A DNA stretch of 63,875 bases, filler included. It is 13 parts of 13 records of this genome, joined end to end, with 100 filler letters (N's around TTAATTAATTAA, not from the genome) between each part and the next. Parts side by side here need not be neighbours in the genome. Positions count along the whole stretch, not along the records: positions 8,375 to 16,053 come from SRR15195285_6430; 12 more parts are not named here. One strand, given 5' to 3'. Numbering within the stretch: position 1 is the stretch's first letter; each line of letters starts with the position of its first letter. Below the pieces are notes generated by a model. It was not told where the DNA came from and searched no databases. It saw only the letters and a program-made list of their open reading frames with translations. The translations under genes and the position numbers were made by a program. This document shows, piece by piece, positions 5,520-36,665 of the stretch.

Positions 5520-7905
<2,386 letters not shown>

Positions 7906-8387
7906 CCTGCCGGGGGCGTATGGTATAAGCTACGCTACAACGTGGAGTCACCAAACCTCTCGCTCCAACAGTCTACCGCTGGCAGACTACCGAACAGGCC
8001 GGCACACTTATCAGCAGCGCGTCTTCTAGTAGAGCCTGCGAGGCTGGCTACGGTACTAGTAGTACCCGCCACGCGAGCGACGCGAGGGCGCCCACGAGGC
8101 AAGGACGGATCAGGACTATAGCACTCAGAGAGCTAGCATACGTACCTAGAACTCTACTTATACTGAGTACGTACTCTACGCGATACGCCAGTACTCTAAA
8201 GTGTACACGCGCTCGCCGGTAGAGCGCGCGAGCCTCCACGCGCGCGGCGTGCGCGAAGGGGAGCATGACGACGANNNNNNNNNNNNNNNNNNNNNNNNNN
8301 NNNNNNNNNNNNNNNNNNTTAATTAATTAANNNNNNNNNNNNNNNNNNNNNNNNNNNNNNNNNNNNNNNNNNNNCTGTGTGTCTGCG

Positions 8388-9873
8388 ATGGCGGCCTTGA
8401 TGGCGTCCCCGGCGCCCTCAGGCTCGAGCAGCGAGGCCTCACCGATCAATGCCGCGGTGGTGGGGGTCGGGGCGACGCCCTCCTCCAGCCGGAAGCGGAA
8501 GGCGCGGGCGTGGCCGGCGGAGAAGGAGCTGCTGGAGCAGCTGGAGTGCTGTATCTGCTGCACGCCGATGACGGGCGCGATCTACCAGTGCATGGACGGC
8601 CATCTGATCTGCGCAGCGTGCAAGCCCAACAGTGCGTCGTGTGCCGATCCGTTTACCAGTCAACACTCGCGTTTCGTCCGCATCCACCCTGACGCACTAG
8701 TTCGCTTCGCACTGACCGTTGTCGTGGCCGCCGTGTTGAATCTCTGTAGTGCGGAACAGTTGCGGAACGTGCCGACAGCCCCTCGGCAACATCCGCAACC
8801 GAGCTCTGGAGAAGCTCGCGGCCTGTCTCAATCTCCCCTGCAAATACTCGGACGCCGGCTGCAACGAGTGCTTGTCTGGACGGGATCGTGAAGCCCACGA
8901 AGCCACCTGCGCGCACCGGCCGTACGGCTGCCCGATGTCGGCTTCCTGCTCATTCTCTGGCTCCAAGGAGGAGCTGTTGGAACACCTGCGTACTGGGCAC
9001 TCGGTCCGGCGACGCAACCCGTTCAACAAGGCCGTTCTCCAGTCGAGCGCCAACTTTCTTGAAGGAGGTGTTGCCAGCGGCGTGCTCTTCACGGCGGATT
9101 CGGGAGAAGAGATGCTGTTCATCTGGAGCCAGACGATCCACGTGCTGCAGGCCTGTATAGTCACGTTTGGCGTCCCGCACAGCCACACCTACAACCTGGT
9201 CATTAAAGCGAGGGGGCGGGAGATTGCATGGAGCGCACCTGTGCGTGATGCGCGGGAGCCAGGTGGCCATATTTTCAAGCAAAACGATTGCCTGACAATC
9301 CAGCAGACACTAGCGGGGTGGTTCTCCGACTCGCCGCCGGAATCGGACGAACTGAATCTAACGCTAGACGTTGAGGTGAAACCTTTGGTGCAGGAGGTAC
9401 CGGACGTCGACACTACTGAAATGCCCCCGGTAATGTCACAGGAGGCTGGATCAGGTGGTGCCCCCAACGCAGTGCAGACACGGCTGGCAAACATACAGGA
9501 TGGGGTACTGTCACGAGACCTGCGGACATGGCTTGCAAGCCGTGGCGGCTGGGGACGCATCGAACTCGCAGTGTGCGAGATCATCGCCGCCTGTCCTAGC
9601 GAATCTGGAATATCAAGGACAGACATCCAGGCCGCGCTAGGGCACCAACACTCGGCGGTGGTATTGCAGAACGCCACGGACAAGCTCGTCGAGCAAGGTG
9701 TGTATCATCGTCGCGCAATCCTTATTGTGTGCGTTCTTTGCTCACGCACGCCTCATTGACTGTGCTAAACCGTCTCGTGGCTCCCTGGATGGGCAGGCTG
9801 GGTCTATCCTACGAATCAGGGGCACTTTTTGATGACCGATCACGAGGGCTTCAGTGGTACTGAGACAGAATGA
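8388..9873 (+). CDS. SINA/Siah-like RING E3 ubiquitin ligase with a C-terminal RPA32C-like winged helix
   Basis: RING 'LECCICC...YQCMDGHLICAAC...CGTCR', 'IRNRALEK' and Sina zinc finger 'LPCKYSDAGC...HEATCAHRPYGCP'. Introns 8632-8749 and 9698-9796 restore the frame; stop at 9871-9873. Confidence 0.88.
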
Positions 9874-10053
9874 ATCTACTTTTTCATTATCTGCATGATC
9901 TGCTGTGGCTCCCAGTACTTTCTCAGAGCCTCGCACGCACGCCTGGCCTTTCGCCAAGTTTAGTGCATTCGCCCGCCCAGACCCACCTGCGAGCACAGCT
10001 TCGATCGGCGCCGAGGCAGATTTGAGTGTGCCGAAGCAGATTTGAGTGGCAAT

Positions 10054-13000
10054 CTACAGCCACTTGGTGGTGAGGTTAGAGGCGTTGTGCTGGTCAGGCA
10101 TTGGCTCATCCTGGTGGTGCCGCCACATACATTGCGTGCAGTCGCAAGTGCCGACCAAGTCATCAAGGCTCGGATCGTCGCCTAGACCTGCGCATTGCTC
10201 CATCAGCGTCACCGCGGGCGCGTCCTGTCCGGATCTGTGGACCTCAGTGAATTGCTCCAGCTCTACGTGGTCAAACCGCACACCCTGGGGATGGTTCTGG
10301 CTGCATGTAGAGAACGTATGGAGTGACTGGTTTGTGTCTGACAGTGACTCGCCGGTGATGTTGAGGGAGACATTCTGCAGCACGCACAACTTGTCACTGC
10401 ACTCCGACTTCAAATCCTGTAGGCTCGTGCCGACCACGCGAGGGGCGCGCGTGAAATTGTCACTGCTTCCTCCTGTTGCGGTGTCGCAGCCCGATGTCGA
10501 GGCGTTCAATCTTTTGCAAATTGTGTTGTTTCTGTTCGAGTGCTTGCCACTGTCACACCACATCACGTTCGTACGACCACTAACAGTGACTGTTGCTTGA
10601 GCAGAAGCAGCACGTACTGCCTTGGCAAAATCCAGATCATCTCCGCTTACCACAATGTCCAGCCTTGAGTTGCCATTCAGACTAGGGGCAGTATTGACCA
10701 GTGCGACAGGCAGATCGTGTCGGTGGTCGATGCACGGCGACGTGGCCAAGACACCAGCGTCAGGGTCCTCTGCGAGAAAGATCGTCACGTTCTGCATCGT
10801 CGCGCACCAGCTCTGCTCCTGCGCACACGTCTTGGTGTCCCAATGTGACAGCCCAGTGAACACTCCGAATGGGCTGCTCTGAATTGTGACATCATTTGGG
10901 GAGGGGATACCGACATCCACCATATTGATGCGTGGCGGCTGCGAGGCCCGCGAAAGATCGAGGCTGAGAACCAAATTCAAGTTCTCTAGTGTAGCATGCT
11001 GACGATCACTCAGCAGCAATCGTCTCAATAGCAGCGTCTGTCGATTCTGGCGCCGTGCATCTGCTTGCGTAGCGTTCCCAACAATCGAAATTTCTCGACT
11101 GGGCAAGCTGCTCGGGGCGCCGTCGGTCGTGTCGTTTTGCCGCAGGTCCCACAAGAGCATTGGAGAATTTCCGATGAGCGTGATGTTCAGCCATGTCGTC
11201 GTCATTGAGAAAGTTGCAAAGACAGACCTTGGATCATCGCGGTCACTCTCACTCCGAGCGAATTCACTATCTTCGAACGACGCAAACGGAGTTCCTGGCC
11301 CCAGAATATTCAGTGGCAACGTTTCCATTGGCTCCAGCTGGCAGGTGTCTCCCACGTTGTCGCACGAGGAGTTCGTCTGGACCTGCACTCGTTTATACTG
11401 AATCGCGACACCGTGAAAAGAGATCGTGCCACTGCGCCACGAATGTGGCGCATCCTGCATGGGCTGTTTGTTGCTTGCAAATGCGGCCACGCAGCTGCCA
11501 CTCCCCGCGATGGGTTTCAGAACGGTGCCATCATCGACCGGAGCACAAGCTCCGCAGCGGGTGTCGGAGGCCGACGTACACTCGGTCGTTTTCAATCCAG
11601 GCCGGCAGCATGCCTGTCCTGCGTGACCTGCTGCCTGAAGGTCAGCCACGAGCCAGACGTTGTGCAACTCCAAATGGAACCCGGCAGACACACCCCACCG
11701 ACCACCACCGTGTCCGCTGTCTCCAGCCCCTAGATACAGAACCGACATAGTTGCATCTGAAGTTGGTGTCGCATGGCTCTGTCTGCCCATGTACGTGCCA
11801 TACCACGACACATTCCAGTCAAAAAGCTGATCTCCAATCTCCGGCTGCCAGGCGCCGAACCGGTCGGCTTGCCCTGGTTGTCCAGTTGGAGCAAGTTGTG
11901 TCACCTTCAAAAATCTGCGAGATCTTTCGGTAGCAGTACTGACTGTCAAAACAGGCTCGCATTCTGGATCAGCGCAGTCATTGTAACAGTAAGGGTTTGC
12001 GTCAGCTCTACACTTAGCCTGGGCATCTCGGCAGGCCTCCATTCCACTGTAGGAGGCGACGCTGATATTTATCAACACGACTACCCTGTCGTAGTTTGGC
12101 ATACCCAACCTTCCGCCTTGATACGACTCAATCTGCGCCCCTTTTCTGAAGATGTGTGTGTACAGGTTGTAGGTCTTGACCAGAGTCAACGACGATACCA
12201 GTGGATCAGCATCTCCAACGTTGTGGTCATTCTTCGACGGCAGCCAAGAGTCGCGCTCGACCTGATCGACGCAGTAGTCCATTCTAAGATTCTCAATCCG
12301 GAGATGGCCTCCCCGGAAAAACCATGTTTCCGGAGCCTTAATTCGGAACACGCCTTTGAGGAAGTATGCGCTGCCACTAGTGGCGTTGGAACCACCCAGG
12401 ATTGTCACGTTCATTGTCGGTAAGACGTCGATACTGAACAGCAATCGATCCCCAAACGTCGGAGTCGATGCTGTCACATTAAGCCTGAGTGCGTACTCTT
12501 GCCCAAGGCTATCGAGCTGGGCAAAAACATCCGTCCCTGCAGCTAGCTGTGTTGCAAGCTCTTGCGTGCGCACGGTAGGCCGCCCTTCGCAGAAATCATA
12601 TGTCGAACTGCATCCAGCTAGGTGACAGCTTGCAAACGTTGCGCTGAGAAGCTGCCGATTGGGACTGACAACTTTGTCTTCATCGAGGAGAATCGAACGA
12701 CTGATCGGGAAAAGAGGAGTAGATTTTCCTTCATCGTTTGCCATCGCATCTGTATACATCAGCTTCTTTTGGTCCTGGTATCCAGCGTGCGTGACTGGTT
12801 GCCCACCTACAAGGCTAGACACGTAGAATGTGGCCCGGCTGAAGGTGATATATGACCTGTCTGAAGGCAACGGATGTGGTGTGTTGAGGTATACCATCGA
12901 TAATACTGAGTCTGAGACGAAAAAATGCCCAGTACCTGCTCCGTAAGCTTGCGCTATGTCATCGCATAGACCCACGCTCGGAAGGTAGGTGAGCGCAGAG

Positions 13001-15783
13001 AGCGTTCGGCAAACTGTGATGCAGCTGGGATGGAGCGCGAACTGGCCGGCCGCTCCACCCTGCGCTTTGTTCTGTTTGCCAACTGCCCCTCCATCATGAC
13101 TGTCGACGAGTGGTACCAATGCTGTGTGACTGATGTTCAACGAGGCCGCGTCCGGATCCACATACAGCTGGATTCCTCGTAGAATGCTGTCCTGGATCAC
13201 AGCCTTGGCTTGTCTACGCACCATGATGGCGTTCTGGTACACAATCAGATGTGGGTTTGAGACGTCTTGCGAATGGTCAGCTGGCTCCTCGTCGCCCCAA
13301 CCAGTCCGATTGATGCGCATTTTGCTCAAGCTGAGAGTTCCGTTACTGCGCACGTCGAACAGCAGCCTCGATTCGACCTTGTTATTGCTAGGAACGCCGT
13401 CTGGTTGCGATGTTCGATTGACCTGTGATCCTACCCATGTTTTGTCCGGCTCTCCGACAATGGAGACTTTAGTACCACGGCAGACATTTATGCACGGGGC
13501 CCTCGCGATCTGTTTTCTAAGAAAAAGCTTCCACTCTCGATGTGTCGAAAGTCTATCTGGTTTGCACGCTGGCTCATCCGGTCTACTAGTAGTTCGAGTG
13601 ATCAGGTCGTCAAGCTCAAACTGTTTGCAGCTGACTTGTGACGACCAATAGGGCTTCAGGTGCAGATCGTAATCTTGTTGTTTGCAAGTGATGTTTGCTC
13701 CGTCCATATATCTGGGGGTGCCTGTGGTACTCTGGTGACTGTACGACACCGCGAGCCAGCCGGGTTCACACGCTGGAGATGGTAATTTGCACACATCCCC
13801 AGCGTGCATACCTGTGCAGTGCATCTGCTTCCACGCTCGCACATTTCTGTGTATGCCAAGGTTGTCGTCCGGCTGTCTCAGGTCTGGACACTCAGCGTGA
13901 TCGGAGGCGAGCTCCCCCCAACATTTGCCTTCGATCGTCCGGGTCGTATTCGTCCCATCGTGCATGGCCGAAAACTCTGTGCACTTGTCGAGGCCTGCCA
14001 CCCAAGCAAAGACTACCATGGACATGGTGAACAGCGCAACAACACAAAGGCCCAGCAACCTGCACCTCTGGAGGGACCTGCGCGTGTGCAAACCATATTC
14101 TGGCCGAATGTCTCGAAAACTTTTGCGTCGAGTGTCGACAGTCGTGTCAGCCACCTGTGTTGTGTTCAGCAGACTCTCACGAGCGCCAACTGCCACCTTC
14201 CGCCTGCAGCACACGCTACGAGCGTACATCCCTGCCGCGAGTGCGGCACAGCCAGCGCCCAATGCGACTGCTTTGTGATCGGCGATACAAGACTGGTCTA
14301 GAGTCGCCCAAACGCTACAAACACCGATCCACGCCGAGCAGGCAGTCACTGTCCTCGCGACCTGATTAACAGTCCGGACGTTGTTATACGTCCAGAATCT
14401 CGCAGATAGGAGAACGGCTCCACCTGTTGCTACCACACACGACAAGACCGCCAACGCCTTGTCGCCCTGGCGCCCCATGTGTGGTGACGCAATTGTACAC
14501 ACACTTGCGACGACGATGCGTGTCAGACATTCCGCCGCCTGGACTGGCTGCGGGGCAACGATGTCCAGGTCCGAGGCGGAGATCGTGGCCGAAATCGATG
14601 GAACGGACCGGACAAACACCGCCCACACGGTGAAGTAACTCATTGTGAACACAGCAATCAGAGCACCAGCTCTGCTGTGCTTCCGGTCCACGCACGAACA
14701 CTGGCTCGCCAACGAACCTTCTCCACAGAGGTTCTTCAGAGCTCCGTGCGGACGTGTGTACAGCATAGAGGAGATGCTTAAGCCTTGGTCTTCTGGGAGC
14801 ACGATCGAGCAGTATCCATCCTCCAAGCCGCCTGAGCCGCTGTACGTAGGGCACTCCATGTACCGTGACACGCTTCGAGTGAGTGCCACAACCACACAGA
14901 AGAGACCAATTCCGGTCAGTGAACTGTACGCCATCCGCAGAGAGCGGCTCTTGGCCTGCCGCTCGTCCTCTATCTTGCGCTCGTTGGCGACCTGCGCCGC
15001 CGCACACCACGCGAGTGTGGCCCAGATGAGCGCGCTCACGATCACGTCAGAGTGCCTGGACCAGCCCGGTACCCACCACAGGATGTCCAGTGCGTAGTGC
15101 ATGCAGTGCGAGACAATCTTGTCGACCTCCTCGCCCCAGATCGTCCCGCCTTCGCCCGGGAGCCGATACGGCGAGCCCCCCGGGTCCACGACGGGCACAC
15201 CGAACTGCAGTAGCACGAACTGGAGCTGCACCAGCACCGCGCTGACCCCTTTGAGCACGTTGTCCCTGTTGAGCCGCACGTCGAGGATGTGTTCCGAGTC
15301 CACCTCCCGCTCGAAGCCCCTCGCGTCCCGCATCTCCCATCCCTCCGGGGCCATCAGCGCCACCCCTACGAGCGCTGCACAGGTGGACAGGAGCACCGCG
15401 ACGTGCACTCCGAGCACAGCTTTCGCCATGGCCGGCGAGCTGACCGAATAGAGCACGACGGGCGTGAGGACATTGAGGGCGATCCACCCACCGCAGAGCC
15501 GCCGCTTCGTGATCACGCTGGACACGAGGCGCATGCGCGGGCAGTCGAGGCCGCCCCGCTCCGAGCACGCCTCGGCCACGATCACGGGTGGCATGCACAG
15601 CACCCCGACTGCCACCTGGACGCCCGTCCGCAGCGCGGAGCGCAGCGACTCCGCCGCGCCGATCGCCTTCGATTCGTCCATCTCCTCCATCCCGTCCATG
15701 TTCGCGAAGCTCGTGTAGATCGACTCCGGCTTCTGCTTCTGCCGGCTCTTGCGCCACGGCAGCGGGCGCAGCTCCTCCCCCAT
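10054..15783 (-). CDS. Large multipass membrane protein with a long Cys-rich C-terminal region (1909 aa), function unknown
   Basis: Uninterrupted 5.7-kb ORF. Roughly ten or more hydrophobic segments in the first 600 aa, then a Cys-rich tail with many N-x-S/T sequons. Confidence 0.8.
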   Translation of the reverse strand: MGEELRPLPWRKSRQKQKPESIYTSFANMDGMEEMDESKAIGAAESLRSALRTGVQVAVGVLCMPPVIVAEACSERGGLDCPRMRLVSSVITKRRLCGGWIALNVLTPVVLYSVSSPAMAKAVLGVHVAVLLSTCAALVGVALMAPEGWEMRDARGFEREVDSEHILDVRLNRDNVLKGVSAVLVQLQFVLLQFGVPVVDPGGSPYRLPGEGGTIWGEEVDKIVSHCMHYALDILWWVPGWSRHSDVIVSALIWATLAWCAAAQVANERKIEDERQAKSRSLRMAYSSLTGIGLFCVVVALTRSVSRYMECPTYSGSGGLEDGYCSIVLPEDQGLSISSMLYTRPHGALKNLCGEGSLASQCSCVDRKHSRAGALIAVFTMSYFTVWAVFVRSVPSISATISASDLDIVAPQPVQAAECLTRIVVASVCTIASPHMGRQGDKALAVLSCVVATGGAVLLSARFWTYNNVRTVNQVARTVTACSAWIGVCSVWATLDQSCIADHKAVALGAGCAALAAGMYARSVCCRRKVAVGARESLLNTTQVADTTVDTRRKSFRDIRPEYGLHTRRSLQRCRLLGLCVVALFTMSMVVFAWVAGLDKCTEFSAMHDGTNTTRTIEGKCWGELASDHAECPDLRQPDDNLGIHRNVRAWKQMHCTGMHAGDVCKLPSPACEPGWLAVSYSHQSTTGTPRYMDGANITCKQQDYDLHLKPYWSSQVSCKQFELDDLITRTTSRPDEPACKPDRLSTHREWKLFLRKQIARAPCINVCRGTKVSIVGEPDKTWVGSQVNRTSQPDGVPSNNKVESRLLFDVRSNGTLSLSKMRINRTGWGDEEPADHSQDVSNPHLIVYQNAIMVRRQAKAVIQDSILRGIQLYVDPDAASLNISHTALVPLVDSHDGGAVGKQNKAQGGAAGQFALHPSCITVCRTLSALTYLPSVGLCDDIAQAYGAGTGHFFVSDSVLSMVYLNTPHPLPSDRSYITFSRATFYVSSLVGGQPVTHAGYQDQKKLMYTDAMANDEGKSTPLFPISRSILLDEDKVVSPNRQLLSATFASCHLAGCSSTYDFCEGRPTVRTQELATQLAAGTDVFAQLDSLGQEYALRLNVTASTPTFGDRLLFSIDVLPTMNVTILGGSNATSGSAYFLKGVFRIKAPETWFFRGGHLRIENLRMDYCVDQVERDSWLPSKNDHNVGDADPLVSSLTLVKTYNLYTHIFRKGAQIESYQGGRLGMPNYDRVVVLINISVASYSGMEACRDAQAKCRADANPYCYNDCADPECEPVLTVSTATERSRRFLKVTQLAPTGQPGQADRFGAWQPEIGDQLFDWNVSWYGTYMGRQSHATPTSDATMSVLYLGAGDSGHGGGRWGVSAGFHLELHNVWLVADLQAAGHAGQACCRPGLKTTECTSASDTRCGACAPVDDGTVLKPIAGSGSCVAAFASNKQPMQDAPHSWRSGTISFHGVAIQYKRVQVQTNSSCDNVGDTCQLEPMETLPLNILGPGTPFASFEDSEFARSESDRDDPRSVFATFSMTTTWLNITLIGNSPMLLWDLRQNDTTDGAPSSLPSREISIVGNATQADARRQNRQTLLLRRLLLSDRQHATLENLNLVLSLDLSRASQPPRINMVDVGIPSPNDVTIQSSPFGVFTGLSHWDTKTCAQEQSWCATMQNVTIFLAEDPDAGVLATSPCIDHRHDLPVALVNTAPSLNGNSRLDIVVSGDDLDFAKAVRAASAQATVTVSGRTNVMWCDSGKHSNRNNTICKRLNASTSGCDTATGGSSDNFTRAPRVVGTSLQDLKSECSDKLCVLQNVSLNITGESLSDTNQSLHTFSTCSQNHPQGVRFDHVELEQFTEVHRSGQDAPAVTLMEQCAGLGDDPSLDDLVGTCDCTQCMWRHHQDEPMPDQHNASNLTTKWL

Positions 15784-15970
15784 TGTTCAGCCCCCTGCCA
15801 GTCGGTCACGCCAGCAGCACCATCTCGAGGACGGTCTGCGCAGGGCTCAGCTACATACAGCAGGGCAGCAGGGCCGCAGGGAGAGCCCCCATTTGAGCAT
15901 CACCGCCAGCAGCACCATCTCAAGGACGAAGCGAGCACCATCAGAATTCAGTCCTCAGTACCGTACTACA

Positions 15971-16547: not shown

Positions 16548-16696
16548 CACTGCGGGGTTGGGCGTGTCGACCTGTGGGCTCGCGCTGCGCTGCGGGGGCT
16601 GGCTGAGGCTGCGAGGTGGGCGGCAGCTGGCGAGTGGCGCGCTGGACTCGTGTAGGACGGTCAGCAGAGGAAGGGAACAGACTAGGTCTGCAGCAG

Positions 16697-18587
16697 ATGA
16701 GCGGAGAGGAGCCGAAGGATGCTGCGAAGGCGGCCAGCCCAACGCCCAGCCCAGCACCTGGTCCGGCAGACACCACGTCGCCCAGCACGGCGGAACCGGA
16801 AGTGGTCGAGCTCACGGTGAAGTCGACAGCAGGTACCGCGTTCAAGACCGAGGTCCCTGCTGACAGCACGGTCCTGGCTGTGAAGGAGGCCATCGCAGAC
16901 CAGAGTAAGATCCCCGCGCAGAACCAGCGGCTGGTGTTCAAGGGCCAGGTGCTAAAGGACGAGAAGACCCTGGTCGGCGACTACGGCTTCAAGTCGGGAG
17001 GCGCGGTGCACGTCGTTCGCGGTGTCGCCCCGGCCTCGCCTGCACCCGCTCCTGCTCCCGCTCCTGCTGCCACACCAGCGCCCGCACAAGCTACGCCGGG
17101 TCTGGGTCTCGGTGGGCTGGGTCTCGGTGGGCTGGGTCTCGGCGGGCTGGGTCTCGGTGGGCTCGGAGGCATGCCGCCCGGGGGGATGGATCTCAACGCG
17201 ATGCAGCGCCAGATGCAGGAGCAGATGGCGGCGAATCCCGGAATGATGGAGCAGATGCTCAACTCTCCAGCGATGCAGAGCCTGATGCAAAACCCCGAGG
17301 CGATTTCGGGTATGATCCAAAGCAACCCGCAGATGCGCGCCCTAATGGAGCAGAACCCGGAGCTGCGCAGCATGCTGAGCGACCCGAACCTCATGCGGCA
17401 GTCACTGGAGGCGGCAAGGAACCCAGCCTTACGTGCAGAGCTGACTCGCAACACGGATCGCGCAATGGCAAACATCGAGGGCATGCCTGGCGGTTACAAC
17501 GCACTTGCTCATATGTACCAAACAGGTGAGTGCTGTCGCTACGCCCTGCGTTTTTGGGAGTGTGACTATGACTAAGAGAGAGCATCTCGTTGCCACAGTA
17601 CAATCGCCGCTCATGGATGCAGCAACGGGCGGCGCTGGCAATACGGGGGCTACCGCGGAGAACGCAGACCCTTCCAGCCCACTAACGAACCCGTGGGCTC
17701 CTCCATCGCCGCCTGGTGCCGGCGGCGCAAATGCTGGCACCGGAACAGCAGGAGCTGGGTCACCTGGGAGCGCTGGCGCTGGCGCGGGGACAGCAGGGGC
17801 GTTCCCAGGTCTTGGTCTAGGTGGGCTGGGTGGGCTTGCCGGGCTTGGTGCAATGGGAGCACCTGGCGGAATGGGAGCACCGTCCCCCGAGATGATGCAG
17901 CAGATGATGAGCAACCCGATGATGCAGCAAATGATGCAGCAAGTGATGAGCAACCCTGCAATGATGGAGCAGATGCTCGCTAGCAACCCAATGGCACAGC
18001 AGATGATGGCAGCAAATCCGCAGGTGGCGGAGATGATGCGCAATCCGCAGCTGATGCAACAAATGATGAACCCGGCAAACATTCAGGCGATGATGCAGAT
18101 GCAGCAGTCTATGGCTCAGCTGCAGGGCTCTGGCTTGATGCCGGGCATGCCGGGCATGCCGGGTATGCCTGCCATGCCGGGCACGCCGGGTGCTGCGGGC
18201 ACGCCGGGTGCTGCAGGCACGCCGGGAGCTGCAGGAGCAGCGGGGTTCGACATGGGCAGCTTGCTGTCGGCCTTAGGACAACCCGGGGCGGGACAACCTG
18301 CTGCACCCGCTGCAGGAGGTACGCACTTTGCGGGGCATATAGCTGTATTTCTCTCAGCGTAGCATAGCCAGGAGAGGAGCGTGTACTCAAGTCCAAGACA
18401 GTGCCGATTGCTCAACAGTGTGTGTGCTGTGCGTGTTGGCGGGCTCGCAGCAACACCGCAAGAGCGCTACAGAGTACAGCTGCAGAAGCTGCAAGAGATG
18501 GGTTTCTCTGATGAAGAGGCCAACTTGACCGCGTTGCAGGCGACGGGTGGAAGCGTGAACGCCGCGATTGAGAGGCTGCTACAGTAA
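16697..18587 (+). CDS. UBQLN: Ubiquilin/Dsk2 (UBL, STI1 repeats, UBA), three exons
   Basis: UBL '[16 protein letters not shown]', Met/Asn/Pro-rich STI1 repeats, '[20 protein letters not shown]' and UBA '[14 protein letters not shown]...[16 protein letters not shown]'. Confidence 0.96.
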
Positions 18588-23360: not shown

Positions 23361-23625
23361 NNNNNNNNNNNNNNNNNNNNNNNNNNNNNNNNNNNNNNNN
23401 NNNNTTAATTAATTAANNNNNNNNNNNNNNNNNNNNNNNNNNNNNNNNNNNNNNNNNNNNGCTCATTCTGACCGCCGGCGGCGCACTGGGAAGGGGAGTC
23501 TATAGTACACTTGGTACCAGCAGTAGACATGCGCTCATGCGGAATTGCGATGCGCACCGCCCGCGCGCGCGCGCGCCGCCCGCCGGCGACAGCGGCCACA
23601 TTTTCGTTCGCTGAGGCTGAGGGCG

Positions 23626-26600
23626 ATGGAGAAGCAGGAGCAGCGGCGGCAGCCGCAGCAGGAGCAGCCGCAGCAGGAGCAGGAGCAGGAGCAGCCGCAG
23701 GAACAGGAGCAGCCGCCGCAGCAGCACTTTGGCACCGGCCGGATTGGCCAGCGGAGCTACGCACCGAGCCTATACGACGCCGCCAGCCCGACGGAGCGCC
23801 TCACGTTCGCGTGGATCAGCGACCTTGTCGCGCGAGGCTATGCCACCCAGCTTGAGGACGGCGACTTGCCGGATCTGCCGCAAGGTGAGAAGACTGAGGG
23901 CATCGCCGCACTGGCGCGCCGCCACTGGCGTGAGGAGCTGGCCACAGGCGATCCGAAGCTGGTCCGCGCATTGCGCCGCATCGTGCAGCGCGACTGCTGC
24001 ATCGCAGCGCTCGCAGAGCTTGTTAAGGTCTCGCTGCAATTCTGTGGTCCAGTCATCACCAACGTGCTGGTCACCTACCTTGCCGAAACACAATCTGGCC
24101 TTCGGAGTCGCGACTGGACCCCTTGGGCGTGCGTTCTCGCGATGTTTGTCATGCCAGCGCTAGCAGGAATTGCAAAGGTCCACCAGACGAACCTGCTTAC
24201 CAACGTAGGCATACGTCTGAAGACTGCGATGACGGCGCTAGTGTTTGACAAGGCTGTGGTTCTGTCGGCCGAGGGGCGTGGCATCTGCCCCAAAGGCGAG
24301 ATGATTAATCTGGTGGCGAACGATGCCGAGAAGGTCATGATGACGGCAGTGAAATTCAACACGTTCTGGTCTGCTCCCGCCACAACTGCCGTGTGCCTAG
24401 TGCTGCTGTCCCTGGAGATCGGCGCCGGGGCAGCATTCGCAGGCTTTGCGATGCTCTGGGTTGGTTTTGTATTACTGGGTCTGATTTTCGCGAATATCGG
24501 CCGGCTCAAGGGCGAGGAGCGAAAGGAATCGGATCGCAGGGTAACAAAGATGGGCGAGTTGCTCCGAGGCATCAAGATTCTCAAGCTCTACTGCTGGGAA
24601 GAGCCGATGGCTGCACAGATCGACACTATTCGCAAGCGTGAAGTGAGCACTGTCAAGAAACAGATCCTGCTCCAGGCGGCGATGCAGATTACGCTGACAG
24701 CAACTCCGTCAATCATGGCATTGGTCGCCTTCAAGGTGTACGTTGGGAATGGAAACACTGTGACACCAGCGAAAATCTTTACCTGCCTGGTGCTCTTCGA
24801 GCTGCTGCGGTGGGCGCTGATGCAGATTCCGCAGATTATCATTGGCCTCGTTGATATCAGGGTGGCGAAAGCCCGATACACCAAGTTTCTCACGGCGCAC
24901 GAGGTCGACACATCCATGCACCTGACGGAAGGCGATGGAGACGCAGACGCGGCCGTGGAAGTGCGGGAGTGCTGTTTCAGCTGGGGTGATGCAGTAAAGC
25001 CCACGCTATCCAACATCAATGTTAGCGTCGAGTCGAAGTCGCTGTCGCTGATATGCGGTCGGGTTGGGTCCGGCAAATCGTCGCTCATCTCTGGCTTGCT
25101 TGACGAACTCCGCTGTACTTCGTCCTCGTCTGCAGACTTTGGGTACGCGATACGCGGCAAAGCTGCCTACGTGGCGCAAGAGGCTTTCATTCAAAACTTA
25201 TCTGTGAGAGAGAACATTCTCTTCGGTGCTCCTTTCGACCGGGACCGTTACGACCGTGTGGTCGAGGCTTGCTCGCTGACGAGCGATTTTGCGCTGATGC
25301 CCTCCGGAGACGCGTGTGAGATCGGAGAGCGTGGTGTCAACCTGTCAGGTAAGTGACTCCAACGCGCCAAATTGCTTGCGCGGCAGTGCTGCTCACTCCT
25401 GTTCACCTGTCAGGTGGGCAAAAGCAGAGAATCGCAATCGCACGAGCTGTCTACTCCGACGCCTCTGTGTTTCTTTTAGACGATCCACTCTCAGCTGTGG
25501 ACCCGGAGGTGGCAAATCATATCTTTAGCAATGTGATTGAGGGCATGCTCAAGGACAAAACTGTACTGTTTGTCACGCACGCCCTGAATTTTTGCCCGCG
25601 GGCTGATCAGATCATCTTCATCGATGAAGGTCGGATCGCTGCCTGTGGCTCATATAAGGAACTGATGGAGGCGAAAACAGAAGCCAACGCGTGTTTTGCT
25701 GCGTTGATTGGTGAGCACGGCATAACCGGGGGCGAAAGTGGCAACAGCAACACAGACGATGGCAGCGGTGCCGACCTAGCTGCAGTTTCGTTGAAAGAAA
25801 AGACAGCAGATGACTGGGTTGAAGAGGAATCAGCTCCAGGTGATGGGGCGTGTGTTTCAGGCGAGGAAAAGGAAGTGAAAAGTCTGGTGGAGGAGGAAGA
25901 GGTTGCTCAAGGCCAGATTGGTGCAGAGATGTACCTCTACTACTTCAACGAGGCGGGGGGCTGCTGGGTATATTCACTTCTTTTGTTCTGCGTGGTGGCG
26001 ATGCAGGCCACGATGATCGGCAGTGAGTGGTGGCTCGGCCGTTGGTCGCTAAATGCGTTCGACGAGCCAGATGCTTACTACCTGCGCATTTATGCGCTCA
26101 TCTTGAGTGGTCTAGGCGTCATCATCTCGACTCGTATCGGGGTGGTCTATAATAGAGGGTTGGTCGCTGCACAGTCTCTTCACAACCAGCTCTTGTCGCG
26201 AGTGCTCTCTGCTACTATGACCTTCATGGATTCGACACCGATTGGAAGGTGCGAAATTGTTCTCAGTAATTTCTTGCCGAATCTGACAACCCCCCGTCGT
26301 CTCGAAATGGAACGATGACCGCTGAAATGATGACCCATGGCGGTGGTGTTCTTGTCGCAGAATCCTGAACCGCTTCTCCCGTGATACTAACATTCTGGAT
26401 ACGATGGTCATGAGCATGATTGACAACATGGTCACAGTATCTGGGTGGTGCATGGCATCTGTATTAGCTATCGCAGTCATCTGCCCGCCCTTCATTGTGC
26501 CTCTGGTTCCGATGCTCCTACTGTACTATCGCTCGATGCTGTATTATCGGGCATCAGCCCGCGACACCAACCGGCTTCAATCAGTCAATACTTCGCCGCT

Positions 26601-27996
26601 CATTACACATTTTACCGAAACTCTGATGGGTATTGTGACCATTCGAGGTTTTGGCAAAGTTCCAGCATTTCTTGCTGAAAACATTGTGCTCACGGACCAC
26701 TGTCATCGACCGCTCTTTGCGAGAGAAATGGTGCGAAGATGGATGGATCTGCGACTGGAGATGATTAATGCTGGACTACAATTCTTTTGCTGCCTGTCCA
26801 TTGTGATCAGCTCAGACGTGCTCAAGCTTGGTTGGGTGGACTCCACGGCTGCTGGCCTAGCGATGAAGCAGTCCTTGGGAACGGGCGCTGTGCTTGGCTT
26901 CATCGTTATGATTGCAAGCATGGTCGAGCAGTCGATGAATAGTGTGGAGCGGATGCGCTACTACATTTCACGAGATAGTGTGCCAGTTGAGTCGGCCCGG
27001 TACAGCGATCCACAGCAGCGAAAGGCGTCGCGTCTAACGTGGAATGCTCAGGCGAAGGACCAGCCTGATCAAGGACAGCAGCCACCGCCGTCATCTTGGC
27101 CGTCCACTGGAGAGATCAGTTTCAAGTCGCTGGGTGTGACGTACGAGAGGGAACTGAAGAACCAGGATGATCTTGTGCTCTCTGGGATTACCGGCACTGT
27201 TCGATCGTGCCAACGCGTTGGCGTCGTCGGACGTACCGGTTCAGGGAAATCGACGTTGCTGACGTCTCTCTTCCGTCTAGTGGAGGCGGCCGAAGGTTCC
27301 ATAGAAATCGACGCATCGGAACTCAACGGCCTGCCCATTGCGAAGCTTGGTCTGTCGGAGTTGAGAAAACGACTGGCAATTGTTCCACAGGATGCAACTC
27401 TGTTTTCGGGCACAGTCTCTTCAAACCTGGATCCTCTAGAGCTGAACAAAAAGGACCAGGCAGGCGAAGGTCCACTATGGGAGGTGCTAGACGCGGTACA
27501 GTTAAGTGCTGCCATCAAGGCCAAAGGTGGCCTCAGCGCTGAGGTGGAGGAGGGAGGCAGCAATTTTAGCATGGGCGAGCGGCAGCTCCTCTGTATGGCC
27601 CGGGCACTGCTGCGCAAGCCGCGGGTGCTAGTGTTGGACGAAGCGACAGCGTCCGTGGATCTTGAAACAGACCGAATGATCCAGCTGTGCATTCGTGAGC
27701 GTTTCTCGGACTGCACGTGCTTAGTAATTGCGCACAGGATTGCTACAGTGATAGATAGTGACGCTGTAATGGTACTTGACGGTGGGAAACTGATTGAGTT
27801 TGACTCGCCAGCGGCGTTGTTGCGGAAACCGGGTGGCTATTTTTCAGCTATGTGCGCCGAGTATGGGGAGGTAATGATGGCCGATCTCCGGCGCCAGGCG
27901 GAGACGGCTGAAGCCCGCACAAAAGCTGCAGTGTGTGCGCCGGTGCGTGGTCAAGAAGCGAGCGGACGGCCTACGCAAGAGCGCGCTCAACCGTAG
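23626..27996 (+). CDS. ABCC (MRP-type) full ABC transporter, two introns
   Basis: TMD1, NBD1 (GRVGSGKSS; NLSG|GQKQR; LLDDPLSAVD), TMD2 (TPIG|RILNRFSRD) and NBD2 (GRTGSGKST; FSMGERQL; LDEATASVD). Confidence 0.96.
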
Positions 27997-31656: not shown

Positions 31657-32572
31657 CCGTCCTCGCCGGCTAGCGTACAGTTAGTACGATCAAAGCGACG
31701 TCGTCGTACCCGGCGTACTACAGCCGTATTATACGTAGTACCGCGGTACGTACTAGGAGTACGCGTACAGGGCAACTACGCCCGGCGAACGCGTTCCTTC
31801 GTTCGCTGGTACCGGTACACGCGTACAGTACCGCTGGGTACCATATCCGCCATCCGCGCCGCTGCGTGCGTGAGTGCGCATCCATCCCGCGGCTACGAGA
31901 GTCTGCGTGTGACGGTGCCTGCATGATCGCGCCGGCGCCCGCGATGTATGCATGTGCGCGGCGCCGCCGGCGCCGCCGCGGCGGCCGGCACCGCGCCGGC
32001 CTGTGGCCGGATGACGATCACAGTGCCCAGGTCGCCACCGTGGAAGAAGAATTGGCCAAAGAAGTTAGAACCAAACGAAACGCCAAAACGACCCTTGCTC
32101 GAGGCACGTGGTGCCCCAAGGTGGGTCCACGCTGCCCAGCCCCCTCCGGCCCCCCAAGACGGTTCTGCATACTCAAACGCGAACCTCCCGACTTCGTTCG
32201 AAGCACAACGTTTGAAGCACATAGCCTTGTCCTTTGTTTGGCTGTCTAACCCCACTCAGCAGTGCTAGCCATCAGTGCTGGTATTCAAAGNNNNNNNNNN
32301 NNNNNNNNNNNNNNNNNNNNNNNNNNNNNNNNNNTTAATTAATTAANNNNNNNNNNNNNNNNNNNNNNNNNNNNNNNNNNNNNNNNNNNNGCGGAGTGAA
32401 AACAACACCAATTTCAGTAGCAATGCGCAATAACAATGCAGCGACTCGAGGTGGTCCGAGGGGAGCACTGCATTGATCAGTGAGTTTTCCGTACTCCCAA
32501 CCCACCCTCTGAGGAGTGATCACCCTCTTTTGCGTGCCCCCATACAGTTGACTGGGGGTGAGGTCCATCGCC

Positions 32573-35500
32573 ATGGAGGGCGGCGGCGAGGTTGAGCTCG
32601 AGCCGTGCGTGCGGGATGTGGCGGAGGGCGGGGTGCTGACGATGTACCTCGCGACGGGGAAGAAGAAGCACAAGCGGTACTTCTGGGTGGATGTGCAGAG
32701 CGGGCTGATCATGTGGGACAAGAAGAAGAAGTACCCGCCGAACAAGGTGGAGCAGCTCGTCGGGGTGGAGGCCAGGCCCGCAGTGCGCGACGCGAAGGAG
32801 TGGTTCAGGGCCATCGACGCGGACGGGAGCGGGCAGCTAAACAGTGACGAGCTGGCGACGCTGTACATGCGCGCAACCGGGGAAAAGCTTGGTAAGAAGC
32901 AGCTGAAGCAAGCCATGCACGAGATGGACACCGATGGTAGCGGCGCCATCAGCTTCGAAGAGTTTGCGAAGTGGTGGCACAGCAACGGGGGTGACCTGGA
33001 GAAGCACAGAGATCTGGCGCTGACAGTGCAGACCGTGGAAGTCACACTTCTTCTAGTCGCGCAGGACGCTGACACGAAACGTCGCTGGGTCCAAGGTCTG
33101 ACGGCCGTAATACGTCTAGTGGCCAACACGCGGTCACCCAGCCGCGCGGATAGCGTGGACGGTTTCGGTGGGCTCCAACACCCGGAGGCTTGGTTTCAGT
33201 GCCAGACAGCCAAAGCACGAGACGGAGCTCAGACGATTCTCGCCCACGGCATCCCCGTGATGGTTGCTGTGCTGCCGCAAGGGGTGGAGATCCGCAAAGA
33301 GGCTACCGGCGAGCTCCTTGCCGCAATTCGGCAAAGTGCGATTCACAGTTCTCAGCTGACGCGCAAGGGATTGCTGGTGTACGTAACAGAGGGTGTGTCT
33401 GGTAGAGCACTACCGGCAGGCTCTGTGCAGGTGCTGGCACTTGATACCAAGCATGCAGAGGAGATGGAAGAGCAGATTGCATTTATCGGCGCGGGGATGG
33501 CGGATCGCTCGCCTGCATCTGGAGGTACCGCTAGGGACGGCTCGGCGCTGCCACCGCCGTCTCCGAGCGACGTCGTCGACGACGCTGGAACCGACGAAGA
33601 AGGATTTGAAGCAACGATGCAGCCCGAGTTTTTCGGCCAGCTTCCTGACGACACAGCGGTGGGCATCGGTGTCGATGAACGAGGCCTTGCCCTGATTGAA
33701 CTCCAGTCTAATTATGTTTGGGAGTTTTTCGACCTGTACACAATACGTGGGTGGGGTGCAAATGAGGAGCAGCTCCAGGTCGTTACTGCCGCAACTGATG
33801 GTGGTGGCGACACGATTCTCAGCTTGTTTACAGAGCAAGGTGCTGAGATCATCGCAAAGCTCAAGTATTTCGCAGAGCAACTTGCTGCAAAACAGCAGGC
33901 GTCAGCTGAATCGGTTGAGGACGATGTCGGTCTTGCCACCGGCGACAATCTGCCCGCGGGTTGGGAGAGTGCGGTATCGGAGAGCACTGGGCACACTTAC
34001 TACATCAATGCTAAGACAGGAGAGTCCACGTATGAGCGGCCGACGGTGCCAGTCAGTGCCGAAGACTCCGGGTGGACTACTCTGCCCGATGGGTGGGAAG
34101 AGCACGTCTCACAGGAGGGTCACACATATTATTTCAACGTGACTACCGGAGAGTCCACGTACGACAGGCCAGGGGCTACTGCCAGCTCGCCAGACACACG
34201 TACACCCGCGGGTGGTGAGCGTTCCTTCGTCGCTGATGACAGCGAATTAGACCAGTGGCCTCTGCCAGACGGCTGGGAAATTCGATTTTCGAGGTCGACC
34301 GGAGCAAAATATTACGCCAACGATATGGCTGGTCAGAGTACGTATGATCGACCCGTACCCTCTCTCCCCCCGGCGGAAGGCGGGCCTTTCGTTGCCAATT
34401 TCACAGAGGATGCACCTCTTGGGCTTGCGTTCAAAAGGACACAAGGCTCGGCATCCAGAACGGCGCAAATAGTAGTGGATGCCAACAAAGCTGAGGGAGG
34501 GGTACTCACCGACGGAGGTCAGGCAGCGGCTGCGCATATTCTACCAGGAGATGTCTTGTACAGTGTGCAAGGTGAGCTGGTGTCTTCGGGCGAGGCCCCG
34601 GATATGTCGGAGGTCGCCAAGCTAATTTCCCATATGGGACGACCGCTGCAACTAGTCTTGGTGCGCGCAGCCCCAAGCCAAGAGCCGGTTGCACACTCCG
34701 TGCCCGAGTCACAGCAGTCAACTGCCGCGGCTCAACCAGAACAACCACAGCCAAAGTCAGAGCCGTCTGAACAGGACGATGCGTGGTGGAGAAAGGAGTC
34801 CGCTGAGCTCGGGCCGCCTGCTGGGCCGGCTACACCGGTGAAGCCAACAGACAGTTCGAGCCCCGCTTCCACAACACCCGCGGCAGCTGATCAGCCTGCC
34901 ACACCTGCTGCTGCTGACCAATCACCCCAGAGCGCTGCCTCCGTATCCTTGTCTTCACCTGGGCTTGGTGACGCCAGCGCTTTGCTGCTGACACCGCACC
35001 ACGGTTTGGCTGCTCCCGAGGAAGACGAGCCGCACGATTTTCCTGATCTGGACATAGGTGTTGCCCGTGCGGGTAAAGACGGCACTACTGTACTCGCGGC
35101 CCACACGAAGGACGTGCTGTCACTGGTATTGATCGAATCACTATCAAACAGCAGCGCCATAGGATCTGCATCGATTGCAAGTGGGTCAGAAGATGGGACA
35201 ATCCGTGTGTGGGACTTGGGTCCTGCGGGCACGCTTCCCACCAATACTGCAACACTTCAACGCCACAGAGGAGCAGTTCGCGCCCTTGCGACGTTTGCTG
35301 ATAAAGGAAACAGATGGCTGGTGAGCGGCGGCTGTGATAAGACTGTCAGGCTCTGGGAGGCTGGTGGTGGAAAGCACTGGAGTTTGGCACACACCCTACG
35401 AGGTCATACTGATGACATTAACACAGTTGCGGTTATAAGGAGCTCAAGCACTGCCAACCGGCTGGCCAGTGGTGGGGACGATATGTCCATCCGACTCTGG

Positions 35501-36467
35501 GTAGAGGATGTTAGCGCCTGGAAATGCGTCGGAATGTGCCGGAGCCGAACGCTTTGGGTGACGGCTGTGCAAGAGTTATCGAGCAGTCTGCTAGCCGCAG
35601 CGGACGGCGACGGTGGCATTTCAGTGTGGTCGCTTGAGTCAGGATCAGATGCATCGGGATTGGAACTGAAGCCCAAACGCCAAGGCGCGCTCGTCGGGCA
35701 CAAGGAAACTGTGTGGGTGCTAGAGTCGTTCCGGTGGAATGGAGCGACAAGACTACTAGCGAGTGCATCTGCTGACAAAACCATTCAGGTGTGGCACCAG
35801 CCAAGAGAACAGAATGCCGACGACGAAAACCCACCGCAGGAGTCGGAGTTTAAGAGTGTTCTCAAGTTTCGTGGACCTGTGGTTAGACGGAGCGTAAACG
35901 CGTTGGCATTCATTCCCTCAGCGCTTGACGAGTCGATATGTGCACATGCGGACTGGAATCTGGCTACGGAGACGATGGTGCTTGACAAGCTACAGTTGGC
36001 AAGCGGCGGTGATGATGGACAGGTCACAATTTGGGCCTTGCAGTACGAGTGGCAGTTTGGAATGTCATTTTGGAACTACAACAAGGTCGCCAGCATCGAT
36101 ATCGAAGGCCCTACTAGCTCTGTACACTCGCTATCAGTAGTTGGCAGCCAAATTGTTGTCGGGCGAAGCGATGGAGTGGTAACCTTGTTGCCGACTCCGG
36201 TAGACCCGACGGCCGCTGACCGGAAGCATGCTCCAAAGCTTGAGATATCGTCTGCGCCGAAACTTGATCCCGTCGGCCTTGCTGTGCCAGCCCGATCTAA
36301 TATGCCATCTCTCGACGACAGCGACGACAGCGACGACAGCGATGACAGCGATGGTGGGCCGCTAGTTCCAGCAGGCCGCGCGGTGCCTCCGCCTCCGGCA
36401 AGCGCTGCAGCTATCAAACTGAAGGCTGTAAGCCCATCGCCAGCAGCACCAGCAGCTGCACCAGCCA
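32573..36467 (+). CDS. Multidomain signalling scaffold (split PH, EF-hand pair, PTB/FERM-C-like, WW x3, PDZ, WD40), 3'-partial
   Basis: EF loops DADGSGQLNSDE and DTDGSGAISFEE; three 'LP.GWE....G..YY.N...G.STY.RP' WW domains; PDZ 'PLGLAF...ILPGDVLYSVQG'; repeated 'ASGG.D.T(I/V)R.W' WD40 units. Confidence 0.9.
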
Positions 36468-36665
36468 NNNNNNNNNNNNNNNNNNNNNNNNNNNNNNNNN
36501 NNNNNNNNNNNTTAATTAATTAANNNNNNNNNNNNNNNNNNNNNNNNNNNNNNNNNNNNNNNNNNNNTAGAGGGCACACAGCCAGGGGCATTGACCCCTC
36601 CCGTCACCGCCCCCCGCTGCTGCGGCACTGAGCTCAGCCCTGCGACGCTGCCTACTGGAGCTGCC

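Follow-up and report, generated by a model that had tools for sequence, protein, structure and literature searches.

A SIAH/SINA-type ubiquitin ligase with an RPA32C-type winged-helix tail from a marine microbial eukaryote

To our knowledge, the winged-helix domain that closes RPA32, here called RPA32C, has hardly been seen outside the tails of RPA32 and of its close paralogues. It serves the replication-stress and repair machinery as a central docking site. The acidic surface of this domain is reported to bind the basic helical motifs of XPA, UNG2, SMARCAL1, TIPIN, Rad14 and NEIL1 (PMC9407234, PMC11387677). The SIAH-type ubiquitin ligases, including SIAH1, SIAH2, Drosophila SINA and plant SINAT, are built in one common order, with a RING, two SIAH-type zinc fingers and a TRAF-like domain, and the gene described here keeps this order. 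The gene lies at 8388-9873 (+) of a 63,875-nucleotide stretch of DNA joined from 13 assembly records, the whole of which is referred to as the window. It very probably encodes a single protein of 422 residues, in which a complete SIAH/SINA RING E3 ligase is followed by a linker of ~30 residues, an extension of ~30 residues and a winged helix homologous to RPA32C. The fusion of a SIAH ligase with an RPA32C-type tail is real and unexpected, and it is confined to a narrow group. Such a fusion was not found described in our full-text literature searches, whose scope did not extend to subscription journals or to domain-architecture databases.

Ligases that work at RPA have been described before. 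RFWD3 and PRP19 are presented as ligases working on RPA-coated DNA (PMC8210275), and RFWD3, which consists of a RING plus WD40, is reported to act at RPA through RPA32C (PMC8210275, PMC11444173). Additionally, the ubiquitylation of SMARCAL1 is reported to control its association with RPA (PMC10950228). Like RFWD3, the window protein would be a RING ligase with a place among the interactions of RPA32C. Unlike RFWD3, which binds RPA32C, the window protein itself carries an RPA32C-like domain, which amounts to a reversed logic, and the two proteins are not homologous outside the RING class.

The ligase and its winged-helix tail

The gene is a three-exon eukaryotic gene, read in three frames, with all of its parts on the plus strand. 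Joining the exons by their coordinates with a script gives a coding sequence of 1269 nt (422 codons and a stop) with no internal stops and a GC3 of 0.73. The product contains, in order, the run RKRKAR, which resembles a nuclear localization signal (NLS), a SINA RING, two SINA zinc fingers, the TRAF-like domain, the linker and the winged helix. Exon 1 (8388..8631) opens with the ATG and encodes a Ser/Ala-rich N-terminus that aligns with those of two relatives, L001 and P0014, followed by the RKRKAR run and the first part of the RING. Exon 2 (8750..9697), delimited by its frame and by Pfam matches, encodes the end of the RING, both zinc fingers, the TRAF-like domain, the linker and most of the winged helix. 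Exon 3 (9797..9873) encodes strands 2 and 3, which form the wing (WVYPTNQGHFLMTD), and then an acidic tail up to the stop, as read from its frame and from the alignment to RPA32 through the closest relative, P0001.

The initial annotation had called the protein a SINA E3 ligase, and the domain scores bear this out. Sina_RING (Pfam) reaches 27.9 bits on exon 1 alone, over profile positions 1-28 of 35, and stays below its cut-off of 29.3 because intron 1 cuts the domain. The C3HC4 RING pattern is matched by a regular expression in the spliced product, and the RINGs of two uninterrupted relatives score 42.7 bits (P0035) and 38.8 bits (P0033). The zinc-finger pair (8812..9009) matches Sina_ZnF over residues 21-86 of the translated exon 2, at 66.1 bits against a cut-off of 32, its Cys/His ligands align with those of SIAH1 and SIAH2, and its pattern is also matched by a regular expression. 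The TRAF-like substrate-binding domain (9010..9378), which runs up to ...LNLTLDVEV, matches Sina_TRAF at 28.3 bits (cut-off 24.8); its end is placed at DVEV on what we take to be the C-terminus of human SIAH1. With phmmer, residues 25-195 of P0001 align to residues 3-181 of SIAH2 (5h9m_A) at E 5.5e-15 and to SIAH1 chains at ~1e-13, and a search of the ESM Atlas returned only SINA clusters (scores 0.78-0.80), which serve as leads only. The AlphaFold model of the whole P0001 protein has a mean pLDDT of 48, with the TRAF-like region below 50, and is usable only at residues ~260-330. Since this model is poor, the assignment of the SIAH part rests on sequence, which places the protein in the SINA/SIAH family. 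In comparison with SIAH1, SIAH2, SINA and SINAT, it adds ~150 residues past the substrate-binding domain, comprising the linker, the extension and the winged helix. The solved SIAH1 and SIAH2 chains stop ~10 residues beyond the region aligned to P0001, in agreement with the earlier statement that Siah proteins normally end at their substrate-binding domain.

The added part starts with the linker (9379..9465), recognized by its conservation in L001 and other relatives, which contains the conserved PPVMSQEAG and, within it, a Ser-Gln pair at 9436-9441. It is followed by the conserved extension (9466..9552; NAVQTRLANIQDG...LRTWLASRGGW), defined by invariant columns in the alignments A3 and A4, and by helices 1 to 3 of the winged helix (9553..9697), assigned through sequence and structure matches to RPA32. 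The initial annotation set the start of its element at 9540, a few bases ahead of the peptide it quoted, which begins at 9547.

The identity of the winged helix is carried by P0001, whose tail is complete and in which 90 of the 102 C-terminal residues are identical to the window. P0001 matches RPA_C (Pfam PF08784) at 26.2 bits and E 1.4e-5 over profile positions 16-105 of 106, above the cut-off of 22.6. When its last 103 residues are compared with the Protein Data Bank (PDB), six of the seven matches at E up to 10 are RPA32, at E 2.1e-7 to 4e-6, the seventh having an E of 1.3, and the alignment extends to residue 270, the final residue of human RPA32. The family profile A4, which includes members of the P0034 cluster, likewise finds RPA32 chains in all of its six PDB matches (best E 1.6e-5). 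The AlphaFold model of the 103-residue tail of P0001 has a mean pLDDT of 77.9 and forms three helices and a two-strand wing, with the conserved extension modelled as a hairpin and a helix (block pLDDT 78-87). The top four PDB matches in Foldseek are all RPA32 (for 4ou0, E 8.9e-4, target-normalised TM 0.87, rmsd 1.0 Å and 35% identity). VIA-align, run on the whole-protein model of P0001, places 4mqv_C at the top (Z 10.8, rmsd 1.2 Å, 65/65 residues, 34% identity), with 1dpu (Z 10.5) and the winged helix of Pyrococcus (archaeal) Rpa2 (Z 10.3) in the next rows. Taken against RPA32C as a family (PF08784; PDB 4MQV, 1DPU, 4OU0), the P0001 model has the same fold, with an rmsd of 1.0-1.2 Å over 62-65 residues and 34-35% identity. 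The structural results and the passing RPA_C score were obtained on the tail of P0001, not on the window's own joined sequence. The earlier description of an RPA32 C-terminal-like winged helix is upheld by these matches, the model fitting best on RPA32C.

The same fold is also found in the archaeal Rpa2 winged helix (9F27, 9F2A) and in the winged helix at the C-terminus of Stn1 (4JQF), at Z 10.3, 9.6 and 9.1. These are C-terminal recruitment modules of OB-fold proteins, none of them fused to a ligase, and the sequence searches selected RPA32 and none of the archaeal Rpa2 or Stn1 domains. The fold alone thus indicates a winged helix, and the sequence matches indicate the RPA32C type. The assignment has several weak points. 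In the VIA-align list, RPA32C is followed at a distance of less than 1 Z unit by generic winged helices (Fur, MCM, Z-alpha). RPA_C passes its cut-off in one of the seven relatives scanned, falls below it in three (P0009 at 21.4, P0002 at 15.7 and P0003 at 14.5 bits) and gives no match at E up to 1 in the remaining three, P0035, P0039 and P0033, the sequence of P0033 ending inside the winged helix. The C-terminus of P0035, taken alone, has no PDB match. The Pfam RPA_C check that came with the initial annotation succeeds on P0001; the exon-2 part of the window's tail, scored by itself, reaches 13.3 bits (E 0.14), below the cut-off.

Like RPA32C, the tail is C-terminal after a linker, is acidic, and keeps the equivalents of Y256 and T267. 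It departs from RPA32 in that the OB-fold DBD-D is missing, in that a conserved extension lies N-terminal to the winged helix, and in that a short acidic tail closes the protein. The window also differs from human RPA32 at four of the six contact residues, and Pfam scores for the family are borderline. Pfam scans of the window product and its relatives found no OB-fold family, and only the SINA domains and the linker precede the winged helix. Since an OB-fold DBD-D is lacking there, the protein does not qualify as an RPA32 subunit. Most winged-helix domains bind DNA or RNA, but for this tail such binding is highly improbable. The structural matches do include many winged helices that bind DNA (Fur, MarR, Z-alpha, histone H1), but the last 74 residues of the protein have a net charge of -7, the sequence matches are to RPA32C only, and the RPA2 winged helix is described as uninvolved in binding single-stranded DNA (PMC11444173).

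Introns, relatives and constraint

Intron 1 (8632..8749; 118 nt, GT..AG, phase 1) is confirmed by a 151-nt contig of the RNA library X3, which joins 8631 to 8750 with no mismatches across GT..AG ends; the exon 1 stretch 8410-8597 is also matched by an RNA-library contig with no mismatches. The last intron (9698..9796; 99 nt, GT..AG, phase 1) opens with GTGTGT and closes with GGGCAG. Ahead of it, the frame 9541-9697 gives ...RGGWGRIELAVCEIIAACPSESGISRTDIQAALGHQHSAVVLQNATDKLVEQG. When left unspliced, this frame continues into VYHRRAILIVCVLCSRTPH and then reaches the in-frame TGA 9757-9759; when 9698-9796 is excised, the join is G|GC and the frame continues as WVYPTNQGHFLMTDHEGFSGTETE to the stop at 9871-9873. 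Both the spliced peptide and the unspliced stop of the initial annotation are reproduced, since the frames on the two sides give exactly that peptide and the TGA stands in the intron frame.

The splice of the last intron, claimed in the same annotation, is corroborated by the ortholog L001, a metagenome contig of 2977 nt whose product is identical to that of the window at 354 of 418 aligned residues. L001 keeps intron 1 (114 nt, GTGAGT...CTAG) and has no intron at the second site, where its DNA, gtggaagaagggtgggtctacccg, reads VEEGWVYPT without interruption. The last junction is uninterrupted in P0001, P0009, P0010 and P0014 as well, and in P0006, P0007 and P0008 the sequence either diverges or ends just past ...EEG, like the unspliced frame of the window. 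From these alignments the last intron seems to be present in the window, P0006, P0007 and P0008 and absent from L001, P0001, P0009 and P0010, always at the same codon. The start of P0001, MRNVCGTC, coincides with GTG at the border between intron 1 and exon 2 of the window, which suggests that the P0001 contig too may have retained intron 1. No second copy of either intron was found in the 63.9-kb window, the best extra match being 14 nt, and an introner origin was set aside with no further copies in that stretch.

The locus is represented on public record by P0005 (274 aa, window 8925-9759), a protein model that takes an internal Met as its first residue (MSASCSF...) and runs out in the unspliced last intron, with ...VEQGVYHRRAILIVCVLCSRTPH. 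Its end agrees with the possibility that the last intron is retained in the strain, in which case the protein would stop at TGA 9757-9759 without the wing, and the winged helix would be truncated and probably non-functional. The RNA contigs come from four runs, and 9048-9261, 9455-9718 and other parts are uncovered, holes from which no inference is drawn. Two results from these runs weigh against the last splice, namely that no contig among them joins 9697 to 9797, and that a 238-nt contig of library X1 covers 9719-9956 unbroken and is thus unspliced at the acceptor. The RNA check foreseen for the last intron accordingly returned no spliced contig. However, Logan contigs of RNA libraries may be DNA or pre-mRNA, so that the X1 contig is a weak point against the splice and no refutation; it might belong to the 3' end of the gene that converges on the ligase gene, described below. 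P0005 is a poor model, as exon 1 and the beginning of exon 2 are absent from it too. The GT..AG ends of the intron are canonical and its phase is compatible, L001 is intron-free at the site, and the open frame of exon 3 encodes W-V-Y-P-T...H-F..T-D, like the relatives and like human RPA32. Truncation is therefore considered improbable, and the three-exon protein with its wing is retained. P0005 is devoid of the RING, of part of the zinc fingers and of the last exon with the wing, and in the absence of RING and last exon the fusion is invisible in the public model.

The family was collected by three word-based homologue searches and one exhaustive search of a representative library. The tail was found in only five protein clusters at 90% identity (P0001, P0002, P0003, P0033, P0034) and in a few short fragments, and all tail-bearing members whose length allows a judgement are SINA ligases. 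The word-based searches recovered the family alone (3/50, 5/8000 and 2/582 candidates); they did not recover true RPA32, which is weakly informative, as a 30-bit match has an E near 1 at that database size. The library search, made with the 99-residue C-terminus of exon 2, gave nine matches at E up to 1e-3. Five of them, P0003 and the short fragments P0025-P0028, have RGGWG.IELEVCEII in common, and the long repeat proteins P0029-P0032 were set aside on reading as compositional noise. Viral contigs yielded 16 pattern matches and no relatives, and metagenome contigs 183 pattern matches and one relative, L001. Proteins of the P0034 cluster, such as P0035 (408 aa), are complete and run from the RING and the zinc fingers through the substrate-binding domain and the linker to the winged helix, with a wing that has diverged to EGWIIPDAEEQAFTMIPAE.

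Between the window and L001, dN/dS is 0.097 for the whole gene, at a dS of ~1.3 (Nei-Gojobori). For the share of the winged-helix region that exon 2 encodes it is 0.08, and 67 of 78 residues are identical there. From WFSD to NAVQ, 47 of 49 residues are identical to L001 and the synonymous sites are saturated; the start of this stretch is presumably the last strand of the SIAH domain, going by the C-terminus of human SIAH1. The linker segment PPx(M/L)SQ(E/D/S/G), at 9421-9447 of the window, is invariant in all seven relatives that cover the linker. A look by eye for a SIAH degron in the linker, in the form PxAxVxP, found none. The fusion is under purifying selection (dN/dS ~0.1) and is conserved across several related marine picoeukaryote lineages, which form a narrow group.

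Surroundings of the gene

The window DNA is eukaryotic and nuclear, with ~57% G+C, long open exons and short GT..AG introns, and the source of the ligase gene is a marine microbial eukaryote. The window organism or a near-identical strain was found in marine and seawater RNA libraries, in contigs with 0-2 mismatches. Upstream of the gene, at 8276-8374, runs of N flank the linker TTAATTAATTA, which carries stops in all frames. This stretch was read as a scaffold gap; it ends 13 bases before the ATG at 8388, and the promoter and 5' untranslated region are thus missing from the assembly.

No replication or repair gene was found among the neighbouring genes in the window. At 10054-15786 (-) there is an uninterrupted frame of 1910 codons, with no Pfam family at E up to 0.001, which is convergent to the ligase gene, the two 3' ends being ~180 bases apart; it is to this frame that the X1 contig might belong. 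A ubiquilin-like gene (ubiquitin domain and UBQLN1 domains) lies at 16607-18362 (+) over two overlapping frames and is probably split by an intron. A carboxylesterase occupies two frames at 6441-7418 (-), and an ABC transporter with two membrane and two ATPase regions occupies three frames at 23527-27996 (+); short introns or frame changes are the likely cause in both. At 32552-38531 (+), a frame of 1323 codons with EF-hands, three WW domains and WD40 repeats adjoins a protein kinase frame of 671 codons, and the two may be one very large multidomain gene.

Possible roles of the tail

A plausible reading, held at somewhat under an even chance, is that the protein is nuclear and that its winged helix is a second docking module, which brings RPA32C-type clients to the ligase or competes with RPA for them. 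The ligase would work in the nucleus, and its winged helix would serve as a second docking module for short basic helical motifs, as in RPA32. Replication and repair proteins that bear such motifs would be brought next to the RING-bound E2 and then ubiquitinated. At the same time, the ligase tail would compete with RPA for RPA32C-type clients. The acidic tail, with its net charge noted above, together with the acidic surface that RPA32C offers to basic motifs, is counted in favour of a docking role.

The nuclear part of this proposal draws on the N-terminus and the linker. The basic, NLS-like run RKRKAR (residues 35-40; 8490..8507), found by a regular expression in the spliced product, recurs as RKRK in P0014, P0035 and P0039 and as RKRNR in P0033, and may direct nuclear import. 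The RKRK run looks more like an import signal than like a helical RPA32C motif. The Ser-Gln pair of the linker stands in a hydrophobic-Ser-Gln-acidic context, which fits the consensus of ATM/ATR-type kinases. This serine may be phosphorylated, and the site could bring the ligase under checkpoint-kinase control. ATM is reported to phosphorylate SIAH1 at Ser19 (PMC4905192). The RKRKAR run and the possible checkpoint site both fit a nuclear role.

The docking part of the proposal can be examined on the contact surface. The residues given as important in human RPA32 are S250, E252, Y256, S257, D261 and T267 (PMC11109976), and F248, E252, H254 and Y256 are reported to matter for RFWD3 binding (PMC11444173). 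These positions were mapped through the alignments of P0001 and of the family profile to RPA32, counting back from residue 270. The outcome counts on both sides, the kept residues for docking and their low number against it. In the order of the first set, the window reads V, Q, Y, P, Q and T, two of six being identical to human (at Y256 and T267); P0001 reads V, E, Y, P, Q and T, with three of six, as E252 is also kept; and P0035, a divergent member, reads I, E, I, P, E and I, with one of six. The equivalents of F248 and H254 are K and W in the window. Within the winged-helix region, exon 3, which encodes the wing, is the least conserved part, with 13 of 21 residues identical between the window and L001; constraint is therefore strongest away from the canonical peptide site.

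The same observations point to a repurposed domain, a possibility that we hold as a lesser one. Here the winged helix descended from RPA32C would have ceased to read RPA32C-type motifs. It, or the extension ahead of it, would bind a lineage-specific partner or substrate, or would regulate the ligase through dimer orientation or autoinhibition, unconnected with RPA clients. Conservation is highest in helices 1-3, in the extension (NAVQ.RLANIQ.G...RGGWGRIEL) and in the linker, and not in the wing; the contact residues are partly kept and in P0035 mostly lost, and P0035 alone has neither an RPA_C nor a PDB match. Yet the domain is still acidic, and the wing of the window's sub-clade still resembles that of human RPA32 (EGWVYPTIDQGHFKMTDHE vs EGHIYSTVDDDHFKSTDAE), a likeness that would be hard to keep without the ancestral constraint.

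A further arrangement would use the tail for recruitment. The winged helix would dock the ligase on a fork protein that normally holds RPA32C, at forks or damage, and the substrates, possibly RPA and fork proteins, would be chosen by the SIAH groove, which would bind PxAxVxP-type peptides. The ligase would then be an analogue of RFWD3. RFWD3 and PRP19 are precedents for this, as ligases on RPA-coated DNA (PMC8210275); the substrate-binding domain is complete by its alignment to SIAH1 and SIAH2, and the protein has two separate docking modules. The data at hand, however, fit substrate capture by the tail equally, and we consider recruitment unlikely.

Returning to the nuclear docking ligase, a stronger form of it is offered tentatively, as doubtful. 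In this form the protein would be a lineage-specific RPA32C-mimic ligase that reads the RPA docking code and ubiquitinates the RPA32C-docking factors as a class (UNG, XPA/Rad14, SMARCAL1, TIPIN), and that is switched by the checkpoint site in the linker. If this were true, it would represent an RFWD3-like control layer built the other way round.

The conserved ligase with its RPA32C-type tail offers a natural experiment. Should the tail still recognize RPA32C-type motifs, the fusion would provide a one-step route to the ubiquitination of all RPA32C clients, and an engineered degrader of these clients could be designed after it. If the tail no longer reads these motifs, the family would show how a recruitment domain is repurposed after fusion.

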